From an uncultured delta proteobacterium (lineage in GTDB: Bacteria > Myxococcota > Myxococcia > Myxococcales > Myxococcaceae), in contig CAVYSY010000025.1 of the NCBI GenBank assembly GCA_963771175.1, positions 1 to 64,000 on the forward strand: a DNA stretch of 64,000 nt, in the 5' to 3' direction. A program made the position numbers and the translations under genes. The notes beneath the pieces were generated by a model. It was not told the origin of the DNA. It saw only the letters and a list, made by a program, of their open reading frames with translations, and ran no database searches. Every line of letters starts with the position of its first letter. The first letter of the stretch is position 1. This document shows positions 18,154 through 64,000 of this stretch, piece by piece.

Positions 18154-18341
18154 TTCAATCGGGGCCGGAAGCTGCTGGAAGCTCAGCGGTTTCCGGAGAG
18201 CGCCACGACCTCGGCGGCCTTCTCTACCAGCGGCCCAGCGTCAACGTGGCCCTGGAAGGCATGCGGCATGTGCTTGAGATTGTTCAGCTTTTCCTGGAGG
18301 CCATTGCAGCCCGCACGGACTGGGGCTAGTCATGCCGCGAA

Positions 18342-18464
18342 ACGCCGAGTCCCGCCGTCAGCGGGAGCGGGGGACCCAGGTTCGTTGGGGCGAATCGCTC
18401 GGCACCGAGCGTAGGGCAGGTTCCCAGCCCGAGTCCGTCAGCTAACCCCGCAGGCGTCGAGGAG
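18342..18464 (+). ncRNA. c-di-AMP (ydaO/yuaA) riboswitch
   Basis: CGCCGAGTCCCGC..GCGGGAGCGGGGGACCCA..TTGGGGCGAATC..GTAGGG..CCCGAGTCCGTCAGCTAACCCCGCAGGCG; P1 ACGCC/GGCGT; abuts RBS of a K+ transporter. Confidence 0.88.
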
Positions 18465-18470
18465 AACACG

Positions 18471-20460
18471 ATGTCTTCCGACCCCAGCAGTCACGGGCCG
18501 GGCTCGCCAACGTCCGCGGGCTCGGCCGCTCCCATTTCCACTCCGTCTTCCTCCCACCGTCACCGTGCTGTCGGAGCGGGGCCCGAGCCGTTCGCCCGGC
18601 TGGCGCCCCTGGCCCTCGGCGCGCTCGGCATCGTCTACGGAGACATCGGCACCAGCCCGCTGTACGCGCTTCGCGACTGCTTCAGCGGTGAGCACGGCAT
18701 CGCTCCCACGCCAGAGAACGTGCTGGGCGTGCTCAGCCTGGTCTTCTGGAGCCTCATCATCGTCATCTCCGTGAAGTACCTCGGCTTCGTCATGCGGGCC
18801 GACAACCGTGGCGAGGGCGGCATCCTCGCCCTGCTGGCGCTGGTGGTGCAGCACGGAGGGCGTGAGGGCAGCGGCGCGCGGCGCATGGTGCTGCTGACGC
18901 TCGGCCTCTTCGGCGCCGCGCTGCTCTACGGCGACGGCGTCATCACGCCGGCCGTCTCCGTGCTCTCCGCCGTGGAGGGGCTCGGCGTGGCCACGCCGCT
19001 CTTCACGCCGTACGTGCTGCCCATCGCCCTGGTCATCCTGCTCGCGCTCTTCCTCGTGCAGAGCAAGGGCACGGGCGGCATCGGCCGGGTGTTCGGCCCG
19101 CTGATGGTGGTGTGGTTCGCCGTCATCGCGATGCTCGGGCATCCACGAGCATGTCGCGCAACCTCGTCCGTGCTCCATGCCGTGGTGCCCACGCACGCGG
19201 TGCGCTTCTTCGCGCAGAACGGCGTGGCACGGCTTCCTGGTGCTGGGCGCGGTGTTCCTCGTCGTCACCGGCGGCGAGGCGCTCTACGCGGACATGGGCC
19301 ACTTCGGCTACCGGCCCATCCGCCTGGCGTGGTTCGCCGTGGTGCTGCCGGCGCTGCTGCTCAACTACTTCGGGCAGGGCGCGCTGCTGCTGCGAGACCC
19401 GTCCGCCGCCGTCAATCCGTTCTTCCACCTCGCGCCGGACTGGGCCCTCTACCCGCTGGTGGCGCTGGCCACGGTCGCCACCGTCATCGCGTCGCAGGCG
19501 CTCATCTCCGGGGTCTACAGCATCACCCGGCAGGCCATCCAGCTCGGCTACTGGCCGCGGCTCGAGGTGGTGCACACCTCCGCCGAGGAGCAGGGGCAGA
19601 TTTACCTGCCGGGCGTCAACATCGCGCTGCTGCTGGGCGTGGTGCTGGTGGTGCTGGGTTTCCGCTCCTCCTCCGCCCTCACGGCCGCGTACGGCATCGC
19701 GGTGACGGCCACCATGGGCATCACCACCTGCCTCGCCTACGTGGTGGCGCGCGAGCGCTGGGGCGTGCGGCGCGCCATCGCCGTGCCGCTGGGCGTGGCC
19801 TTCCTCGCGGTGGACCTGGCCTTCTTCGGCGCCAACTTCGTCAAGGTGGCCCACGGTGGCTGGCTGCCGCTGACGATGGGCGTCATCCTCTTCGCCCTGA
19901 TGACCACGTGGAAGCGCGGGCGCGAGCTTTTGGGACAGAAGCTGCGCACCGGCGCCATCGGCCTGAAGGACCTGCTGGAGAGCTTCGGCGACAACGCGCC
20001 CCACCGCGTGCCGGGCACCGCCATCTTCATGACGGGCAACCCCGAGATCGTCCCCAGTGCGATGCTCCACAACCTGAAGCACAACAAGGTGCTGCATGAG
20101 CAGACGCTGCTGCTCACCATCACCACCGAGGACGTCCCGCACGTGCCGCCGACCGAGCGGGTGACGGTGGAGAGCCTGCCCCTGGGCATGCGCCGCATCA
20201 CCGCGCGCTACGGCTTCATGGATGACCCGTCGATTCCGGACATCCTCAAGCGCTGTCGCGAGGCGGGCCTGCCCTTCAGCGTCATGAACACCAGCTTCTT
20301 CCTCGGCCGCGAGACGCTCATCGTCAGCAAGCACCCGGGCATGGCGCGCTGGCGCGAGGCGCTCTTCGTCTGGATGAGCCGCAACGCCCGCTCGGCCACC
20401 GCGTTCTTCCGCATTCCGCCCAACCGCGTGGTGGAGCTGGGCGCTCAGGTGGAGCTGTAG
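18471..20460 (+). CDS. kup: Potassium uptake transporter Kup (frameshifts near 19140-19225)
   Basis: GIVYGDIGTSPLY, DNRGEGG, YGDGVITPA, EALYADMGHF, LHNLKHNKVLHE. Confidence 0.95.
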
Positions 20461-49138: not shown

Positions 49139-50026
49139 ATGATTCATGGCATCAACGAGGGTGTGACACCGCCCGAACGACAGGCGACGATGCGGCTGCG
49201 TGATGGTCGCGCGCTCTCCTGGTCCGAGTGGGGCTCCGTCGAGGGCCTCCCCGTCTTGTTCTGCACCGGAGCCGCGATGAGCGGGTGGCTTGGCTTTGGC
49301 GCGAACGACCTCCCGAGCCTCGGCTTGAAGCTCATCGCCATCGACCGGCCCGGCCTGGGCTCGAGCGACGCGCACCCGGACAAGACCCTGTCCTCCTGGG
49401 TGGAAGACACGCGGGAGCTCATCGCGGCGAATGACTTGCAGGACGTGACCGCCGTTGGCTTCTCGCAGGGAGCACCCTTCGCGCTGGCGCTCGCGGGGCA
49501 TGGCCTCGTGAAGGCCGTGGCGCTCGTGTCCGGGCAGGACGAGCTCGCTCACCCGCGCATGTTGCCGCTCCTCCATCCGGATGTGGCGGGGATGGTCCGT
49601 GCTGTTCAGCACGATGCCACGGGGTTCGAGCAGGCCTTCGCGCGGATGGCCACGCTGGAGGGATTGTGGCAGCTCATCATCGGCATGAGCGCGGAGCGCG
49701 ACCGCGAGCTGTACCTGAGTGAGCACTTCGGCGAGGCATACCAGCGATCCTTGCGGGAGGGATTCTCGCAAGGCGCGCGGGGGTACGCGCGAGACCTCGT
49801 CAACGCCCTGGGTCCGTGGCCGGTGGCGCCGGAACACATCACCGTTCCGGTGGATCTCTGGTACGGCGGCGCGGACACGAGCACGGTCCACTCCCCCGAT
49901 TTCGGCGCCACCCTCGCCTCACGGCTGCCGAACGCCTCACATACCGTGGATGCCGAGGAGGGCGGGTCGATCCTCTGGACGAGAGCCCGGGATATCCTCG
50001 CGAAACTCAAATCCAGACGTTCCTGA
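49139..50026 (+). CDS. Alpha/beta hydrolase
   Basis: LRDGRALSWSEWG, IDRPGLG.S, GFSQGA. Confidence 0.88.
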   Translation: MIHGINEGVTPPERQATMRLRDGRALSWSEWGSVEGLPVLFCTGAAMSGWLGFGANDLPSLGLKLIAIDRPGLGSSDAHPDKTLSSWVEDTRELIAANDLQDVTAVGFSQGAPFALALAGHGLVKAVALVSGQDELAHPRMLPLLHPDVAGMVRAVQHDATGFEQAFARMATLEGLWQLIIGMSAERDRELYLSEHFGEAYQRSLREGFSQGARGYARDLVNALGPWPVAPEHITVPVDLWYGGADTSTVHSPDFGATLASRLPNASHTVDAEEGGSILWTRARDILAKLKSRRS

Positions 50027-55936: not shown

Positions 55937-56114
55937 GCACCCAGTGTGGAGCGCCCCAGGAGGCAAGAGCTCCCCAGCCGACCGAGCGGTCTGGAGCAGG
56001 CCCCCGTCGGTCGCACCGCGCCCCTGGATGGCCAGCCCGGTCAGGAAATTCGCGCGTCCCGCGTCAAATACCTCATGAGGACGAGGCGCTCGGTTGCTCC
56101 TCCCTCTGAGATAT

Positions 56115-56185
56115 AGGCCGGTCGTTCAGTGGAAGGACCGCGGTCTCCAAAACCGCTGACGGGGGTTCGATTCCCTCTCGGCCTG
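56115..56185 (+). tRNA. trnW: tRNA-Trp(CCA), CCA tail not encoded
   Basis: Acceptor AGGCCGG/TCGGCCT; GCGGT-CTCCAAA-ACCGC; TTCGATT loop. Confidence 0.9.
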
Positions 56186-56190
56186 TTGAC

Positions 56191-56261
56191 AGGGACGTAG
56201 CTCAAAGGAAGAGCACCTGCCTGATAAGCGGGAGACAGCAGTTCGAGTCTGCTCGTCCCTA
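56191..56261 (+). tRNA. trnI: tRNA-Ile(GAT)
   Basis: AGGGACG/CGTCCCT; CCTGC-CTGATAA-GCGGG; TTCGAGT loop. Confidence 0.88.
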
Positions 56262-56270
56262 TTCACAGAC

Positions 56271-56341
56271 ACGCGAGTCGCTCAACAGCAGAGCACCGGT
56301 TTGACATACCGGAGATCAGGGTGCGACTCCCTGCTCGCGTA
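56271..56341 (+). tRNA. trnV: tRNA-Val(GAC), atypical D and T loops
   Basis: ACGCGAG/CTCGCGT; CCGGT-TTGACAT-ACCGG; T-loop TGCGACT; no GG in D-loop. Confidence 0.8.
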
Positions 56342-56345
56342 ATTC

Positions 56346-56416
56346 GGGGTCATCGTCCAACAGGAAGATGCCGCCATCGCAAGGCGGAGATCCGGGTGCG
56401 ACTCCCGGTGACTCCA
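56346..56416 (+). tRNA. trnA: tRNA-Ala(CGC), atypical
   Basis: GGGGTCA/TGACTCC with G3:U70; CCGCC-ATCGCAA-GGCGG; T-loop TGCGACT. Confidence 0.82.
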
Positions 56417-56427
56417 CTCTTCATCTC

Positions 56428-56496
56428 GGGCTGACCGCTGGGGCGGAGCCGGACCTTGCACGTCTGGCCTGTCGGGTTCGATTCCCGGTCGGTCCA
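56428..56496 (+). tRNA. tRNA-Ala(TGC)-like RNA with aberrant D-arm
   Basis: GGGCTGA/TCGGTCC with G3:U70; CGGAC-CTTGCAC-GTCTG; TTCGATT; D hairpin CCGC-TGGG-GCGG follows position 7 directly. Confidence 0.65.
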
Positions 56497-56505
56497 CTCC
56501 CTCCC

Positions 56506-57945
56506 TCACCAGGCCCAGAAGGCCAGCAGGGCTCCCGCGACGGTGGCCACCACGTTGACGGTGTCGTTGCCCAACCAGGAGAAGCCTCGGTGCGACCGGG
56601 TAGGCCGGCCACAGCGGTGAATTCTGCGCTCGGTCTCCCGGCCGCAGGTGTCGCACCACCGCACGTCCTGCACCGTGGCGCCCAGGAGGCTGTCGATCAG
56701 CGAGCCCACCACTCCGGCCAGGATGAGCCAGGGCACGAGCGACCACCGGGCCCCCGCGAGCGCGGCCGCCAGTCCCACGAAGGTGGCGCCCGCGGTGGCC
56801 GCCAGCAGCCCCACTCCAGAGACAGCCCCGGACGTGCCCGGCGCCACCGGTCGCAGCGTGGTGAGCAGCCTCGGGGGCGAGCGGGAGAGAACGCCCAACT
56901 CCGTGGCCCACGTGTCCGCGTTGGCGGCGACCAGGGCGCCCAGCATGGCCAGGGCGTAGCGCTCGTCTCCGGTGACGCCCAGCAGCACCGCCGCCAGCCC
57001 CGCCACGCCCCCATTCGCCAGTGCCTGCCCCAGGTCGCGCGTCCCCGTCTTGGCGTACTCCTCCTCCACGCCGGCCTTCCGGGCGCGGAAGGACTTGGAG
57101 AGCACGCTGGAGGAGATGAAGAAACCGAGCAGTGCCGCGGCCCCCACCGCACCCGCCAGCCCGAAGACGGGCGTGCCGATGAGGATGGCGCCCAGCACAC
57201 CGCTCGGGGTGAGTGAGCCCCGGGCCCAGGACGCCACGCCGATGAGGAGGGCCACTCCCGCGCCCACGCCCAGGCCCGCGGCGTGCGCGGGCGGGACGAG
57301 GAAGAGGACGGCCCCGGCGGCCAGCGGCACCCAGAGGTTGTCCCGGCCCCGGGTGCCGAGTGCCTCGGCGCAGGTGGCCACCACGGCGCACAGCAGGGCC
57401 AGTGGCACCTTCGGCATGTCCGGGGCGAGGCCCGGCATCCACGTCAGCGTGGCCAGCACGGCCACGAAGGTGCCCGCCAACATGGCCAGCGAGCCCTCCA
57501 GGCTCTTGCGCTCGCCGCCGAGCGTCTCGTACGGGTGGCGCCCGAAGCGCCGGCCCACCAGCGAGGCCAGGGCATCCCCCACCGCCATGGCCATGACACC
57601 GCCCGCCGCGGCCGCGGGCTTGTCCCACGCAAGCCACACCAGCAACGAGAAGGACACCGGGAACCAGACCGTGCCCAGGTTGTCGGGCTCGGCCTCCACG
57701 GACTTCAACAGGCGCTTGCGGTGGATGAGCCAGTTGCCCGCCACCGCCGTCACCGACGGCACCACGGCCAGCGCAGGGTTCCGGAAGAGCAGCAGCGTGC
57801 CGAAGATCCAGAAGCCCACGCTCACGTGGACGAGCTTGCGTGCGAGCTCTCGCGACAGGCCCGCGCGCAGGGCCAGCTCACCCGCGACCACGCAGACCCC
57901 GATATACCCATAGGACCAGAGGAGTGCCTGAACGTCCTGACTCAT
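56506..57945 (-). CDS. Fusion of phytol/dolichol kinase-like (CTP-transferase) domain and DUF92 domain
   Basis: ARKLVH, GDALASLVGRRFG, KSLEGS, DNL; then RDLGQALANGG, ANADTWATELG, GTSGAVS, DSLLGATVQ, NDTVN. Confidence 0.88.
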   Translation of the reverse strand: MSQDVQALLWSYGYIGVCVVAGELALRAGLSRELARKLVHVSVGFWIFGTLLLFRNPALAVVPSVTAVAGNWLIHRKRLLKSVEAEPDNLGTVWFPVSFSLLVWLAWDKPAAAAGGVMAMAVGDALASLVGRRFGRHPYETLGGERKSLEGSLAMLAGTFVAVLATLTWMPGLAPDMPKVPLALLCAVVATCAEALGTRGRDNLWVPLAAGAVLFLVPPAHAAGLGVGAGVALLIGVASWARGSLTPSGVLGAILIGTPVFGLAGAVGAAALLGFFISSSVLSKSFRARKAGVEEEYAKTGTRDLGQALANGGVAGLAAVLLGVTGDERYALAMLGALVAANADTWATELGVLSRSPPRLLTTLRPVAPGTSGAVSGVGLLAATAGATFVGLAAALAGARWSLVPWLILAGVVGSLIDSLLGATVQDVRWCDTCGRETERRIHRCGRPTRSHRGFSWLGNDTVNVVATVAGALLAFWAW

Positions 57946-57964
57946 GGACCCGAGTGTACCCTGC

Positions 57965-58954
57965 CTATTTCGAGGTCTCCGGGTAACAGCCCGCCAGCCG
58001 GGCTCGCTCGCGCACCAGCACCAGCACCAGCTCGCAGGTCGGCATCGGCTTCCCGACGAGGTGGCCGAGCTCCACCACCGCACCCAGCAGCGCGTCGATC
58101 TCCATCGGCCGGCCGCGCTCGAGGTCCTGCAGCATCGAGGTCTTGTGCGCGCCGACCTCCGCCGCCCCTTGGATGCGCTTGTCGACGTCGATCGGGAAGC
58201 GCACGCCGAGCGCCTCGGCGACGACCTGGGCCTCCACCATCATCGCGCGCGCAACCGCCCGCAGGTCGTCCCTCCCCGCGAGCCGCTCGAGCGTCGCGCC
58301 CGTCAGCGCCGAGAGCGGATTGAAGGCGAGGTTGCCCCAGAGCTTGACCCAGATCTCGTCGCGGATGCGCGCCCGGACCGGCGCCTTGAAGCCCGCCGGA
58401 TCACAGGCGCGACAGGGCCTCGATGCGCGGCGCTCTTGCTGCCGTCGGCTCGCCCAGGGAGAAGCGATCGCCATAGGTGTGCTCGATCACGCCGGGCTCG
58501 ACCACCTCGGCCGCCGGATAGACGCACGCGCCGATGACGCGCGATGGCTCCAGGGTCCGGCAGAGCTCGCCGCCCGGATCGACGCTCTCGCACCGGCCGG
58601 TCACGGTAGGGCCCTTCGAGCCCGTGGAAGTACCACCAGGGCACGCCGTTGATGCCGGTGACGAGCGCGGTGTCGGGGCCCAGCAGCGGCGCGATCTGCG
58701 GCGCGGCCGCCGGCAGGGAGTGCGCCTTCAGCGTGACGACGACGTAGTCCTGCGGCCCCGCCTCGGCCGGGTCGTCGGTGCAGCGCGGCCGGACGGTGAC
58801 GCTCTCGCCCCCGCTCCGGAGCGTGAGGCCCCGCTCGCGCATCGCCGCGAGATGCGCCCCGCGCGCGATGAGGGTGACCTCGGCGCCGGCCTGGAGCAGC
58901 CGGACACCGATGAAGCCGCCGATCGCGCCGGCGCCGAAGATGGCCGATCCTCAT
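57965..58954 (-). CDS. panE2: Ketopantoate-reductase-family enzyme, probable oxalyl-CoA reductase (frameshifted)
   Basis: [42 protein letters not shown]; coupled to upstream acyl-CoA ligase. Confidence 0.75.
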
Positions 58955-60502
58955 GCCGTCAGCCCCAGCTTCTCGGCGAGGCCGATGCGCTGCAGCTTGC
59001 CGGTCGCGCCCTTGGGGATCTCGGCCAGGAAGACGATCTTCCGCGGCACCTTGAAGTCGGCCAGGCGCGCGGCGGCGAAGTCGCGGAGCTCCCGCTCGCC
59101 GGCGCTCGTGCCCTCGCGCAGCACCACGGCGGCGGCGACCTCCTCGCCGAGCTTCGCGTGCGGCATGGCGAAGGTGACCGCCTGCGGCACCGCCGGGTGG
59201 TCCATCAGCACCGTCGTCGACCTCGAGCGGGCTGATCTTCTCGCCGCCGCGGTTGATGAGTCTCCTTGAGCCGGCCGGTGAGCCGCAGGTAGCCCGTCCT
59301 CGTCCATCACGCCCTGGTCGCCGGTGCGGAACCAGCCGTCGGTGAAGGCCCTGGCGTTGGCCTCGGGATTGTTCTCGTAGCCGGCCGTGACGTTGCGGCC
59401 GCGGATGACGACCTCGCCCGAGCGCGCCCGCGGGCAGCAGGTTGCCGTCCTCGTCCATGATGGCGACCTCCGGCCCCGCGGCGAGGCCGACCGAGCCCGG
59501 CTTCCGCGGCCGCGGCGGCAGCGGGTTCGAGGCCATCTGGTGCGCCGCCTCGGTCATGCCGTAGCTCTCGATCACCGGCACGCCGAAGACCCGCTCCAGC
59601 TCCTCCATCACCTGCGGCGGCAGCGACGCGGAGGAGGAGCGGATGAAGCGCAGCCGCCCCGCCCGGATGACCTCGGCGTTGCGCGCGGCGCGCGCGAGGA
59701 TCGCCTGGTGCATGGTCGGCACGGCCGTGTACCAGGTCGGCCGCGCCTCCTCGAGCCAGGCAGAAGAAGTGGAGCGCGTTGAAGCCGGGCGTGCAGACCA
59801 CCGCGCCGCCCGCCGCGAGCGACGCCAGCACCGCCGCGATCAGCCCGTGGATGTGGAACAGCGGCATGATGTTGAGGCAGACGATCCGTCGCGCGTCAGC
59901 GCGAGCGTGCGGCCGATGTGGCACGCGGAGGCCGTGACGTTGACGTGGCGCAGCGGCACGATCTTCGGCCGCGAGGTCGTGCCGGAGGTGTGCAGCACGA
60001 GCGCGACGTCCTCGGCCGCGGCGAAGCCAGCTCGGGCCGGCGCGCCAGCGAGCGGCCGCTCCGGCCTCAAGGTGAAGACACCGGCCGGTCCTCCCGGGTC
60101 GGGCATCAGCTCGAGCACCGGAATGCCCCGCGCCGCTGCGACGGCGCGGGCCGGGCTCTCCTCGCCCTCCAGGAGGACGAGCGCCTTGGCGTTCAGGTCG
60201 GTGAGGTAGAACTCGAACTCCTCCGCCCGGTAGGCCGGGTTGAGCGGCGCGGTGGTGGCGCCGCACGCGAGGGAGACGAAGGCCGTCGCCATCTCCGGCC
60301 CGTTGGGCAGCACGATGGCCACCCGGTCGCCGCGCCCGATGCCCATGCCGTTCAGCGCCGCGACGGTGCGCCGGGCGAGGTCCCTCAAGCCGCCATGGGT
60401 GAGGCCGGGCCGTCCCGGAGCTCCGACCGCGAGATCGCCCTCGCGCCCGTGCTCGATGAGTCCCCCGACCGTGTCAGCGAGGTACATGCTCGAAGCCTCC
60501 AT
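58951..60502 (-). CDS. Acyl-CoA synthetase, probable oxalate-CoA ligase (frameshifted)
   Basis: [57 protein letters not shown]. Confidence 0.85.
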
Positions 60503-60582
60503 GCTGGAGGTTCTCCGATATGCGCTCCGAGACCACCGCGCAACCGGCCAGCTCAGCGGCCCACGAAAGAAGCAAGCGCCAG

Positions 60583-60969
60583 CTATTCGGGCACGAGCTG
60601 CACGTTCACCACGCGACCCTCGTAGCCACAACTACAGCAGCCGGTGCGCTCCACTGCGGCCACCTCCTCCACGAGATGGACCGACCGGTAGCCTGGAGCC
60701 TGGATGTCGAGCTCGTAGCGGCCCGGCCCGTTCTGGGAGAGGTAGCAACTGGCGACGTTCCCGTCCGGAGAGCACGAGCCCTGCCCAGCCCCCAGCACCA
60801 CCTCGGGCACGGGTTGTCCGGAAGCACCGCTGACGCGCAGCGAGAGCGCGGGAGGACAGGGGCCGCACAGGACGGCGGCGCATTCATCGTTCTGTGCCCA
60901 GGGCAGGCCACAGGCCGAGAGCGAGAGGACGAACAGCGTGGTGCGGAAGAGCGTCGGGAAACGGTTCAT
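60583..60969 (-). CDS. Small Cys-rich lipoprotein with carboxypeptidase-regulatory-like domain
   Basis: LSLSAC lipobox; PGRYELDIQAPGY. Confidence 0.7.
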   Translation of the reverse strand: MNRFPTLFRTTLFVLSLSACGLPWAQNDECAAVLCGPCPPALSLRVSGASGQPVPEVVLGAGQGSCSPDGNVASCYLSQNGPGRYELDIQAPGYRSVHLVEEVAAVERTGCCSCGYEGRVVNVQLVPE

Positions 60970-61101
60970 GACGCGTGCAGCGAGCAACGTATGTGCCACG
61001 CCCTGCCCTCTCGGGAGCCCCCCGAGGAGGGCCTCGCGGCTCCCTCGGAAATCCGAGCCGGTGGGGAAAGTCCGAGGGGGTGCGCCTCCGGGTGCCCTCG
61101 C

Positions 61102-61623
61102 CTACCGGCCGCGCGCAGGCAGCACCGTGGCCTCGCGCACCGGCGCCGAACCCGACTCCAGCGCCTCAATGCGCTTGCGCTGGCGGTGACGCAGGATCTT
61201 CTCGTAGGCCACGTTCAGCTCGCGCATCTTCGCCTCCGAGCCACCCCGGTCCGGGTGCCGCTCCAGCGCCAGCTCGCGAAAGCGCGCGCGGATGACCTCC
61301 GGCGGATCCATCGGCGACACGCCCATGATCCGGTACGGATCCTGGTCGTCGAGCGCCGCCAGCCACTGGTCCAGCCGGTCCTTCACCGCGATGAAGCGCT
61401 CGTCCGCCTCCGTCTTCTCCTTCACCGGGTGCGTGCGCATCTTCGCGTCCGCGCGGAGGACGTCCGAGTAGGTGCTCGACACCCAGCGGTGGCACGAGCC
61501 GCAGCGGAAGTACTTCACCCGGGGGCCCGAATGGCCGGTCATCCGCACCCCACAGTGGGTGCACTCGACCTCGACGTTCTCCAGGGTCCGCCAGTTCCAG
61601 CTCGTCGCAACCGCCGCGCTCAT
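61102..61623 (-). CDS. Zn-ribbon + J-domain protein
   Basis: CTHC/CGSC; DPYRIMGV..HPDRGG..LNVAYE. Confidence 0.9.
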   Translation of the reverse strand: MSAAVATSWNWRTLENVEVECTHCGVRMTGHSGPRVKYFRCGSCHRWVSSTYSDVLRADAKMRTHPVKEKTEADERFIAVKDRLDQWLAALDDQDPYRIMGVSPMDPPEVIRARFRELALERHPDRGGSEAKMRELNVAYEKILRHRQRKRIEALESGSAPVREATVLPARGR

Positions 61624-61780
61624 GGGTGTGAGACCTCTTCGCTCGTGCGCTACAGCTCTGTAGCTGGCGTCAAGGTCCCACGATCCGATCCTACGTCAAG
61701 AAAATTGGCAATCGGACGGTACTCGCTCCCCCAGCCACACGGCCCGTCCGAACGACCGGGTTTCACGGTAAACCGTGTGG

Positions 61781-62616
61781 ATGCTCGAACAGACGATCGC
61801 CTTCCTCGGCGCCGGCAACATGGCCGAGGCGCATCATCAAGGGCCTGCTGCGCGCCGGCACCGCCAGGCCCGAATCCATCATCGCCACCGGCCGCCGCGC
61901 GGAGCGGCTGGACGCAGCTCCACGCCGACCTACGGGGTGCGCACCACCCTGGACAACCTGGCCGCCGTGCGCGAGGCGGACGTCGTGGTGCTCTCGCGTG
62001 AAGCCGCAGGCCCTGGACAAGCTGCTCGTCCAGGTGGCACCGGCGATCGACCCGCACAAGCTCGTCATCTCCGTGGCCGCCGGCGTGCCCATCGCGGCCA
62101 TGGAGCGGCGGCTCGGCGCCGGGGCGCGCATCGTCCGCACCATGCCCAACACCCCCTCCCTGGTGGGCGCGGGCGCCTGCGCGCTGGCTCGGCGGCGAGC
62201 ACGCCACCGACGAGGACCTGACGCGTCGCCACCGCGCATCTTCGAGTCGGTGGGCATCACCACCGTGGTGGACGAGAACCTCCTCGACGCGGTCACCGGC
62301 CTGTCCGGCAGCGGCCCGGCCTACATCTTCCTCATCATCGAGGCCCTCTCCGACGCGGGGGTGAAGGTGGGCCTGCCCCGCTACACCGCCCTCAAGCTCG
62401 CCGCCCAGACGGTGCTGGGCAGCGCCAAGCTGCTCATCGAGACCGGCGCCCACCCCGGCCAGCTCAAGGACCAGGTGACCAGCCCCGGGCGGCACCGCCA
62501 TCGCCGGCCTGCACACCCTGGAGGCAGGCGGGCTGCGCACCACCCTCATCAACGCGGTGGAGGCCGCCACCCGCCGCGCCAAGGAGCTGGGCGAGCAGTT
62601 CCTGGAGAAGTCCTGA
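61781..62616 (+). CDS. proC: Pyrroline-5-carboxylate reductase (frameshifted)
   Basis: [36 protein letters not shown]. Confidence 0.92.
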
Positions 62617-62642
62617 GGGCTGGCCTATACTGGGGGGCCGCC

Positions 62643-63173
62643 ATGAAGATCACCCCTCTCGACATCCGGCAGAAGCGCTTCGAGACGGCCCTCCGCGGCT
62701 TCTCGAAGCGCGAGGTCGAGGCCTTCCTCGAGCTCATCGCCGGCGAGTTCGAGGAGGTGGTGAAGGAGAACATCGCGCTCAAGGAGGAGCTCAAGCGCAC
62801 CCAGCTGCGGCTCGAGCAGCACCTCGAGCGCGAGCGCACCCTGCAGGAGACGATGGTCACCGCCCAGCGCATCAGCGAGGACCTGAAGGCCGCCGCCAAG
62901 AAGGAGGCGGAGATCATCCTCGCGGACGCCGAGCACCAGGCGGAGAAGATCGTCCACGGCGCCCACCAGCGGCTGGTGCAGGTGGTGGAGGACATCAACG
63001 AGCTCAAGCGCCAGCGCGTGCAGTTCGAGTCCCAGGTGCAGCTCCGTGGTCGACGCGCACCAGAAGCTGCTGGAGACGTTCAGCGGCCGCACCTTCGCCG
63101 ACAAGGACTACGCGCGCGTCGAGGACAACGTGGCCTTCCTCACCCAGAAGAAGGCCGCAGCAACGGCGAGTAG
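62643..63173 (+). CDS. divIVA: DivIVA-domain protein (FruD-like; frameshift near 63040)
   Basis: MKITPLDIRQKRFETALRGFSKREVEAFL + coiled coil. Confidence 0.92.
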   Translation: MKITPLDIRQKRFETALRGFSKREVEAFLELIAGEFEEVVKENIALKEELKRTQLRLEQHLERERTLQETMVTAQRISEDLKAAAKKEAEIILADAEHQAEKIVHGAHQRLVQVVEDINELKRQRVQFESQVQLRGRRAPEAAGDVQRPHLRRQGLRARRGQRGLPHPEEGRSNGE

Positions 63174-63176
63174 CCC

Positions 63177-63478
63177 GTGGCCGCCTCCTGGCTCAAGGAA
63201 GTCCCCGGCGGGGTCGAGCTGGCCGTGCTGGTGCAGCCCCGCGCCTCGCGCACCCGGGTGGTGGGCGAGCACGACGGGCTGCTGAAGATCCAGCTCGCCG
63301 CCCCGCCGGTGGACGGCGAGGCCAACGCCGCGCTGGTCGAGTTCCTCGCCAAGCGACTGGGCGTCCCCCGGCGGCAGGTGACCCTGGTCGGCCGGTGACA
63401 CCTCGCGTCGCAAGCGGGTGCGAGTCGAGGGGCTTGACGCGCGCGGAGGCCGAGGCTGTTATGTCTGCGGGCACGTGA
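63177..63478 (+). CDS. yggU: DUF167/YggU family protein (frameshifted)
   Basis: [22 protein letters not shown]. Confidence 0.9.
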
Positions 63479-63485
63479 GGCTCCC

Positions 63486-64000
63486 ATGCGCCACCTGCTG
63501 CTGCTCCTGACGTTGCTGCTGTCGCCCATCGCGGGCAGCCCAGGAGGGCTACGTCGGCCCCGCCCCGGTGGCCGGCCATGCCAACGGAGGCGCGGAGCCC
63601 GCGCTGGTGCCCCTCCCCCGGCCCGCGCTGGTGGCCGGCGAGCTGTCCACGCCGCGCTTCCGCATCCTCTACACCGCCAAGCGCCGAGGGCTGCCGCGCG
63701 CCAGCTCGCCGGCGCCATCGAGTCCGTGCGCGACAGCTTCGTGGGCGTGCTGGGGCGGGACTGGCCGGGCGTGACGGAGCTGCGCGTGGGCGTGGGCCGC
63801 GAGGAGTTCGAGGCCCTGGCGCTCCCCGGCGGCGCGCCCCCGGGCTGGGCGGTGGCGCTCGCCTACCCCATGCACCGGATCGTCCTGCTCAACGCGCTGA
63901 CGCTCTCGCGGCCCCGAGGGCCTGGCCACGCTGCGCCACGAGCTGGCGCACGTGGCGCTGGGGCAGCTCGGCGAGGAGCTGGCCGCGCTGGTTCCAGGAG
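63486..64000 (+). CDS. Peptidase MA-like metalloprotease (partial, frameshifted)
   Basis: Signal peptide; PGWAVALAYP; LRHELAH HExxH. Confidence 0.75.
   Translation, partial: MRHLLLLLTLLLSPIAGSPGGLRRPRPGGRPCQRRRGARAGAPPPARAGGRRAVHAALPHPLHRQAPRAAARQLAGAIESVRDSFVGVLGRDWPGVTELRVGVGREEFEALALPGGAPPGWAVALAYPMHRIVLLNALTLSRPRGPGHAAPRAGARGAGAARRGAGRAGSR

Follow-up and report, generated by a model that had tools for sequence, protein, structure and literature searches.

The five clustered tRNA genes described here are, on the evidence of sequence comparison, real, spare and under purifying selection. They form one conserved part of a spare tRNA set and stand behind a promoter motif that is common to their sister modules, to RNA-repair genes and to the gene of a candidate ECF sigma factor. 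We therefore consider it probable that the cluster belongs to a backup set of tRNAs that is transcribed under stress. In the following, the window denotes the whole stretch of DNA that was analysed (64,000 nt), and G000 denotes the genome from which it derives.

ARAGORN identified five forward-strand tRNA genes in the window at positions 56115-56496, namely Trp(CCA) (56115-56185), Ile(GAT) (56191-56261), Val(GAC) (56271-56341), Ala(CGC) (56346-56416) and Ala(TGC) (56428-56496), with intergenic gaps of 5, 9, 4 and 11 nt, thereby bearing out the gene order Trp-Ile-Val-Ala-Ala and the 4-11 nt spacers of the original prediction. Rfam RF00005 matched four of the five (53.8, 67.7, 60.8 and 48.6 bits; E 2e-7 to 1e-12) and did not detect Ala(TGC). 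An alpha/beta hydrolase gene and a DUF92 gene flank the module. The Trp gene is near-canonical (79% identity to housekeeping Trp) and occurs in only 2 of 12 orthologous clusters, and the Ile gene has a canonical fold. The remaining three genes are aberrant. Val carries a G55 T-loop and AG in place of the D-loop GG; Ala(CGC) combines a G55 T-loop with A32, a 3-bp D-stem and G3:U70. Apart from the AG of Val and the 3-bp D-stem of Ala(CGC), these features had been described before, and the genome-wide comparison confirmed that the TGCGACT T-loops of Val and Ala(CGC) are the only two among 80 Rfam tRNA matches in the genome that do not start with TT, and that Val alone among these 80 lacks the D-loop GG. 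The A32 of Ala(CGC) was likewise read correctly, but C32 is found in 3 of 13 homologues. The G3:U70 pair was confirmed in both Ala genes. Ala(TGC), whose peculiarity had been overlooked, is the oddest gene of the module, with a 7-bp anticodon stem, a 4-bp D-stem, a 4-nt D-loop, a 3-nt variable loop and no 8/9 linker.

None of the five genes is followed by an encoded CCA, as predicted, but this trait is not distinctive. CCA is encoded by just 20 of the 61 housekeeping tRNA genes and by 1 of the 19 auxiliary Rfam matches in G000, and the genome carries two genes of the CCA-adding/poly(A)-polymerase family. Because CCA-less genes are the rule in this genome and CCA-adding family genes are present, the missing CCA carries little information, and it was rejected as a marker of odd tRNAs since 41 of the 61 housekeeping genes lack it as well. 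Several other elements of the window were recorded. A tRNA-Thr called by ARAGORN within the hydrolase ORF (49189-49279) lacks Rfam support and is probably false, and a c-di-AMP riboswitch (93.6 bits) lies at 18333-18471 on the forward strand. Genes broken across reading frames are frequent at 57900-64000 and at the RtcB loci; they point to sequencing indels in the assembly, so that single gaps in G000 need careful reading.

Canonical genes for Trp, Ile (three copies), Val(GAC), Ala(CGC) and Ala(TGC) (two copies) are located elsewhere in the genome. The possibility that the module holds the sole housekeeping copies was thus rejected, and its predicted auxiliary status was upheld by comparison with these isoacceptors. 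The cluster was found in 12 of 18 genomes of the genus (Archangium), and 10 of these clusters lie next to the same DUF92 gene; two further genomes carry a lone Ala(CGC) elsewhere, and four yielded no match. Among database records, those bearing the same Ala(CGC) belong to Archangium, Vitiosangium and one Myxococcaceae genome (10 of 10 matches), and on this basis the window is assigned to Archangium. The Ala(TGC) gene gave no match in a metagenome scan, and its covariance model matched 1 of 149 other genomes of the phylum. The leading gene of the orthologous clusters is Trp in two, Glu(TTC) in four and neither in six (n = 12). Since the first gene varies in this way, the earlier reading of the cluster as supplying only hydrophobic amino acids was not borne out.

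The predicted action of selection received support from two sides. In seven relatives, identity reached 70-71/71 for Ala(CGC), 64-69/71 for Val, 62-68/71 for Ile and 56-60/69 for Ala(TGC), whereas fourfold sites of the neighbouring DUF92 gene were 67-74% identical in the same relatives (seven of nine rows; L002 and L011 were left out, having no valid DUF92 comparison). Compensatory changes were also present. Over nine distinct rows, 6 of 23 pairs in Ala(TGC) had changed on both sides, four of them within the 7-bp anticodon stem, with 99.5% of cells paired, and Ile showed two-sided changes in 5 of 21 pairs; the rows are kin, so that shuffle counts overstate the signal. Ala(CGC) varies too little to show covariation (84 of 500 shuffles reached the same level), G15/C48 in place of A15/U48 in G027 being read by eye. 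Val also varies too little within the genus, and its three two-sided changes all come from one distant row, that of G037. Against these signs of constraint, the module could be regarded as the remnant of a tRNA array that was acquired horizontally and has since fallen silent and begun to decay. The cluster is missing from 6 of the 18 genus genomes and damaged in 3 of the 12 that have it (Val and Ala are fused into a hybrid gene in G009, Ala(CGC) is truncated in G016 and Val is absent from G006); its features are aberrant, and its nearest relatives are found in phage and other arrays. However, identity far above neighbouring silent sites, the compensatory changes in Ala(TGC) and Ile, and a promoter motif kept in all 12 clusters make a relic very improbable. 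The hybrid of G009 (L012:1400-1600, reverse strand) apparently arose when the stretch between the T-arms of Val and Ala(CGC), which are nearly identical, was deleted; it could be an assembly artefact.

Positions U33, purine 37, G18 and U55 are invariant in tRNA decoding and in the tRNA elbow, and synthetase identity elements include G3:U70, the discriminators A73 and G73, and the anticodons. Among Val(GAC) orthologues, C33 occurs in 7 of 10, U37 in two and a U-U acceptor mismatch in five, and these features are poor for decoding. The loss of such invariant features while stems and anticodons are kept raises the alternative that, within the same regulon, the odd Val and both Ala act as decoys or sponges for tRNA-cutting nucleases, or as charged or uncharged signals, and seldom decode. 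The co-regulated RtcB, RNA ligase and RlaP described below would suit nuclease attack, and the accessible part of PMC8421152 raises a sponge role for the operonic tRNAs of Anabaena, some of which are cleaved. We nevertheless regard this alternative as rather unlikely: G3:U70, A73, G73 and the anticodons are retained in all intact orthologues, the five modules of the genome avoid anticodon overlap, and in Anabaena charging was seen for 23 of 26 array tRNAs, those tested being found on polysomes (PMC8421152, accessible part).

A conserved motif upstream of the module had escaped the original prediction. It lies at 56040-56065 on the forward strand and resembles an ECF-type promoter, with GTCAGGA at 56040-56046 as the predicted -35 element and CGTC at 56062-56065 as the predicted -10 element. 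The motif GTCAGGA-N14/15-CGTC (GTCAG-N16/17-CGTC) is situated 14-49 nt 5' of the first tRNA gene in all 12 orthologous clusters, despite their differing upstream genes. Neither a sigma-70-like promoter nor an intrinsic terminator was found at the module locus. The motif of the module scores 21.6 bits, and only 10 of 20000 random windows reach 18 bits. All five auxiliary tRNA clusters of the genome are preceded by the motif (21-30 bits) vs 1 of 47 other ARAGORN clusters at 18 bits or above. The matrix was built from sites of 32 relatives that are orthologues of three of the five modules; the scores of these three modules are therefore not independent, and the weight falls on the held-out sites. 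These comprise the Cys module, where the motif is also present in three of five relatives, and, in G000, a locus of R2K ATP-grasp and Ro60/TROVE genes, a Band-7 gene, a Ubl/ThiF pair and a phosphoesterase gene.

Further held-out sites come from the related genome G004, where 23 strict matches were obtained vs 11 for the reversed control pattern. They include six auxiliary tRNA modules and the genes of an RNA ligase, RlaP, an EF-Tu paralog, a phosphoesterase and Ubl/ThiF proteins, and about 6 of the 23 seem unrelated. RlaP is reported to help restore repaired tRNAs (PMC12776372, accessible part). RtcB loci of five relatives are likewise held-out sites: the motif stands upstream of 14 of 26, in three of the paralog families, at fixed distances (about 65, 219 and 310 nt) ahead of the start positions estimated for the genes. 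Being short, the motif shows no genome-wide enrichment, and its right-spacing counts of 9 and 10 barely exceed the 3 to 10 at other spacings. The proposed tie to RNA repair and translation stress is supported through a shared promoter motif and not through the neighbourhood. The statement that no RtcB or Ro60 gene adjoins the module holds for its flanks, but three RtcB paralog families and the Ro60/TROVE locus carry the same motif. It also precedes canonical tRNA genes in both G000 and G004, namely a Pro-Arg-His-Arg cluster (G000:C26:30374, reverse strand) and an Ala(GGC) copy (C46:153811, forward strand). Because these are housekeeping genes, the sigma factor may serve a role broader than damage response.

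Three further loci were noted in connection with the motif. The EF-Tu paralog of G000 (C37:48594-49916, reverse strand) has its own leader and a weak motif variant of 8.1 bits; in G004 the match is complete. An RNA of about 125 nt (G000:C24:286003-286165), conserved in all five relatives searched, stands behind the same motif. In its fold, a long closing helix that contains an internal loop encloses three hairpins, one of which is a T-arm, and we take it to resemble a bacterial Y RNA; its interpretation as a decayed tRNA-Ser was dropped, since the element is conserved and folds differently. Between the motif and the Band-7/slipin gene lies a structured leader (G000:C37:47150-47408, reverse strand) that includes a T-arm-like hairpin and is kept in five of five relatives. 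Rfam gave no family match for either the Y-like RNA or the Band-7/slipin leader RNA.

Only one of the 33 genes with a sigma-70 region 2 (Pfam, G000) has the core motif within 700 nt upstream. This candidate ECF sigma gene (G000:C26:361857-362516) is located 17 kb from the main sister array and is present in 29 of 61 genomes, which include all 18 of the genus and four other genera with motif-led odd tRNA clusters. The core motif lies upstream of the candidate sigma in 26 of the 29 genomes; in all 18 genomes of the genus the distance is 195-197 nt, and in-gene controls scored 9.4 bits or less. A profile built from homologues of the candidate sigma matched itself alone. In 28 of the 29 loci, the candidate is followed on its 3' side by a conserved gene of about 390-420 aa, with named homologues in Myxococcus, Corallococcus and Stigmatella. 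This partner protein, a putative anti-sigma factor, matches zf-HC2 with an E value of 0.0014, weaker than the curated cut-off; its predicted structure comprises helices, two zinc-finger-like motifs and a beta-sandwich, and fold searches with it returned no informative match. On this reading, the candidate sigma would directly recognise the promoter motif.

The promoter could be real and yet respond to a trigger other than RNA damage or translation stress, such as development, starvation or spore germination, or be served by another sigma factor. The motif ahead of housekeeping tRNA genes is consistent with this reading, as are the partner protein, whose predicted structure holds no known RNA sensor, and G037, whose arrays are motif-led but whose sigma gene has the core motif nowhere within 400 nt. 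However, the held-out protein targets are mostly RNA-repair and translation genes, the sister modules bear an attenuator that is read by the ribosome, the motif is found at only 1 of 33 sigma genes, and one genome with a tRNA array lacking the motif (G031) has no match to the candidate sigma. We consequently hold another trigger or sigma to be unlikely and favour the stress-transcribed backup set.

The leader of the module differs from those of its sisters. A 5' hairpin is predicted at 56072-56110 on the forward strand, lacks a U-tract and was observed in this genome and G011 alone; the G011 sequence can form the same hairpin by reading. A 13-codon ORF (window 56075-56116) without a Shine-Dalgarno sequence starts 9 nt past CGTC and spans the hairpin; it has a GTG start in G011, several relatives have an ATG at the same place, and others lack that ATG. 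A leader-peptide attenuator, with Shine-Dalgarno sequence, leader ORF, antiterminator and terminator, is absent at this module. In contrast, three sister modules (attenuators at C26:379732, C3:19588 and C54:50971) have a Shine-Dalgarno sequence and a leader ORF. Across 23 loci, the leader ORF remains open for 32-62 codons and its ends are conserved; at the 20 loci with a terminator-like hairpin its last bases pair with the 5' arm of the hairpin (-15.6 to -21.8 kcal/mol); the U-tracts of these hairpins are weak. In classical attenuation, a ribosome at the stop codon leads to termination and a stalled ribosome to read-through. By analogy, a ribosome reaching the stop of the sister leaders would permit termination, and a stalled one would permit read-through.

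The promoter-plus-leader unit occurs in 49 of 151 genomes of the family, representing eight genera. Outside the genus, it leads into tRNA genes in all 27 cases checked, with the strict hairpin pattern in 10. The codons of the leaders track the downstream tRNAs with a modest signal (match 0.27 vs 0.19 shuffled, with 0.7% of shuffles as high; 57 leaders, nine clusters), which at the amino-acid level is 0.40 vs 0.32 shuffled (2.3% as high) and is partly driven by the Glu/Asp/Gly/Leu modules. In G278, the 50-codon leader of a 22-gene array holds all 20 amino acids.

Five scattered modules of G000 together provide 25 tRNA genes with 25 different anticodons for 19 amino acids, without Ser. In addition to the present module, the set comprises the main sister array of 14 genes followed by an HNH gene (C26:380045-381301), a Gly-Leu-Leu module (C3), a Glu-Asp module (C54) and a Cys module (C47); the His gene of the main array (C26:381055) is a 31.5-bit Rfam match with the anticodon read by eye. 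Under a crude model of uniform draws from 45 anticodons, the chance of 25 disjoint anticodons is 0.003. The description of the module as a minimal set and as restricted to hydrophobic amino acids was accordingly not sustained, since four other modules in the genome add 20 tRNAs and Trp leads in fewer clusters than Glu(TTC). The auxiliary set of G000 cannot replace the housekeeping set because Ser, Thr(GGT), Ala(GGC) and Arg(ACG) are absent from it. In five other genomes, the modules retrieved, a non-exhaustive collection, span 14 to 19 amino acids with some duplicated, and among them Ile and Ala are supplied solely by this module, whose Ile gene is also the sole Ile of the auxiliary set in G000.

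The origin of the module was considered from its nearest relatives. The closest to Val is a Val(GAC) in the 25-gene array of G037 (75%), that to Ala(CGC) is a G55 tRNA-Ala on a 176-kb viral contig (75%), and that to Ala(TGC) is an array Ala of G031 (74%), while Trp is closest to the Trp gene of the host itself (79%). Val and both Ala thus share 74-75% with array or viral tRNAs vs 59-66% with host isoacceptors, at a locus that is syntenic in the genus. In phage and plasmid collections, no record covers more than 18% of the cluster, and individual tRNAs, chiefly Trp, account for all matches. The genomes G278 and G203, from other genera, hold contiguous arrays of 22 and 24 genes with the same promoter and leader. 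The array Ile and Ala belong to other lineages than those of the module, and this Ile type was found in none of the 18 genus genomes; the idea that the module is a broken-off piece of the long array of the family is therefore not supported. Judging by these similarities, the module was probably recruited separately from the phage/L-array gene pool. A different, array-type Ala occurs in exactly those 4 of 18 genus genomes without a match to the module Ala genes; this exclusivity looks like replacement and may reflect a single event. In G031, a 9-gene odd tRNA array without the motif (L190:8475-9463) lies 1.4 kb past a tRNA-Leu(GAG), and its Ala(CGC) also has an extended anticodon stem.

The backup set that we favour would operate as follows. 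A signal would free the ECF sigma from the zinc-finger protein encoded next to it, and the sigma would start transcription a few bases past CGTC at its own gene, at the repair genes and at each tRNA module. The transcript of the present module would be cut in the 4-11 nt spacers, CCA would be added enzymatically and host synthetases would charge the tRNAs, in which the identity elements (G3:U70, discriminators, anticodons) have been retained. Upon RNA damage or faltering translation, these tRNAs would supplement the pool in use, with this module supplying the Ile and Ala that the other modules lack. Because it has no attenuator, this module would respond to the sigma alone, whereas the three sister modules would additionally need a ribosome stalled in the leader ORF. 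Related genomes are not independent samples. A more far-reaching and speculative possibility, to which we attach little probability, is a second translation kit of myxobacteria switched by the ECF sigma, which would comprise scattered modules of spare tRNAs, ribosome-read attenuators whose codons sample the downstream tRNAs, RNA-repair enzymes, Y-like RNAs and a diverged EF-Tu handling reshaped tRNAs such as Ala(TGC), which would still decode despite its 7-bp anticodon stem and missing acceptor-D linker.

In the accessible parts of the literature compared, experiments on inducible spare tRNA sets come from one cyanobacterium only. With the present system, a family that includes cultured strains would offer a second case, wired independently of the first, for which a candidate regulator can be named, the promoter is exact and the targets are listed. 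It also indicates that small odd tRNA clusters that escape a 20-gene definition can be parts of one set, and Ala(TGC) probes how far a bacterial tRNA may stray from the cloverleaf. The promoter, the sigma, the split layout in myxobacteria and the shape of Ala(TGC) were not found in open-licence literature.

The closest known system is the 26-gene trn operon of Anabaena sp. PCC 7120, which is induced 100- to 1000-fold by ribosome-targeting antibiotics (PMC8421152); here and below, the sources are compared as far as their accessible parts extend. Like such L-arrays, the module is made up of closely spaced supernumerary isodecoders; the main sister array (C26) has an HNH gene behind it, and RNA-repair genes appear to be co-regulated. 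Unlike L-arrays, the module has five genes and no adjacent HNH gene, the set is split over five chromosomal loci whose position is kept within the genus, and an apparent ECF sigma promoter with sister attenuators takes the place of direct repeats over a sigma-70 promoter. Owing to its length and the lack of an HNH neighbour, the module is not filed as an L-array. Archangium gephyra DSM 2261 is already listed in the dataset of PMC8421152 with 80 tRNA genes and one 12-gene array. In Anabaena, HNH and rtcB are co-regulated with the tRNA operon (PMC8421152) by the repressor TrcR (PMC10272220). In both systems, an autoregulated regulator appears to join tRNA arrays with rtcB, HNH and slipin genes. 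According to the accessible text of PMC10272220, TrcR is restricted to cyanobacteria and two cyanophages; it is a repressor of the ribbon-helix-helix type, whereas the candidate here is an ECF sigma that would act as an activator, has a zinc-finger protein as its partner and is linked to its targets by prediction. A tRNA array unit has been defined as at least 20 genes at a density of at least 2 per kb (PMC5966550, accessible part). The arrays of 22 and 24 genes in G278 and G203, behind the same promoter and leader, are comparable to such units, whereas both this module and the main array with its 14 genes are too small for the definition and would escape it.

Regarding the promoter, a -10 element CGTC with a TGTCA-like -35 element has been described, CGTC being a common ECF -10, and a conserved upstream motif is taken as a sign of autoregulation for ECF sigmas (supplement of PMC7826278, accessible part). 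In the present case, a bipartite motif of fixed spacing precedes the first tRNA gene and the same motif precedes the sigma gene. It shares with ECF41/ECF42-type promoters the -10 CGTC, a -35 starting with (T)GTC and autoregulation, and differs in its -35, GTCAGGA vs TGTCACA or TGTCGAT (PMC7826278); the text GTCAG was not found in the accessible part of that supplement. As for the reshaped alanine tRNA, Ala(TGC) shares with tRNA-Pyl and mitochondrial tRNA-Ser(UGA) an extended anticodon stem, a short D-loop, a shortened acceptor-D linker and a 3-nt variable loop (PMC1851642, accessible part). It differs from tRNA-Pyl in its 7-bp rather than 6-bp stem, its 4-nt D-loop, the TTC kept in the T-loop, the TGC anticodon in place of CUA and its Ala identity, and so, as far as its predicted fold indicates, Ala(TGC) resembles tRNA-Pyl in shape only.
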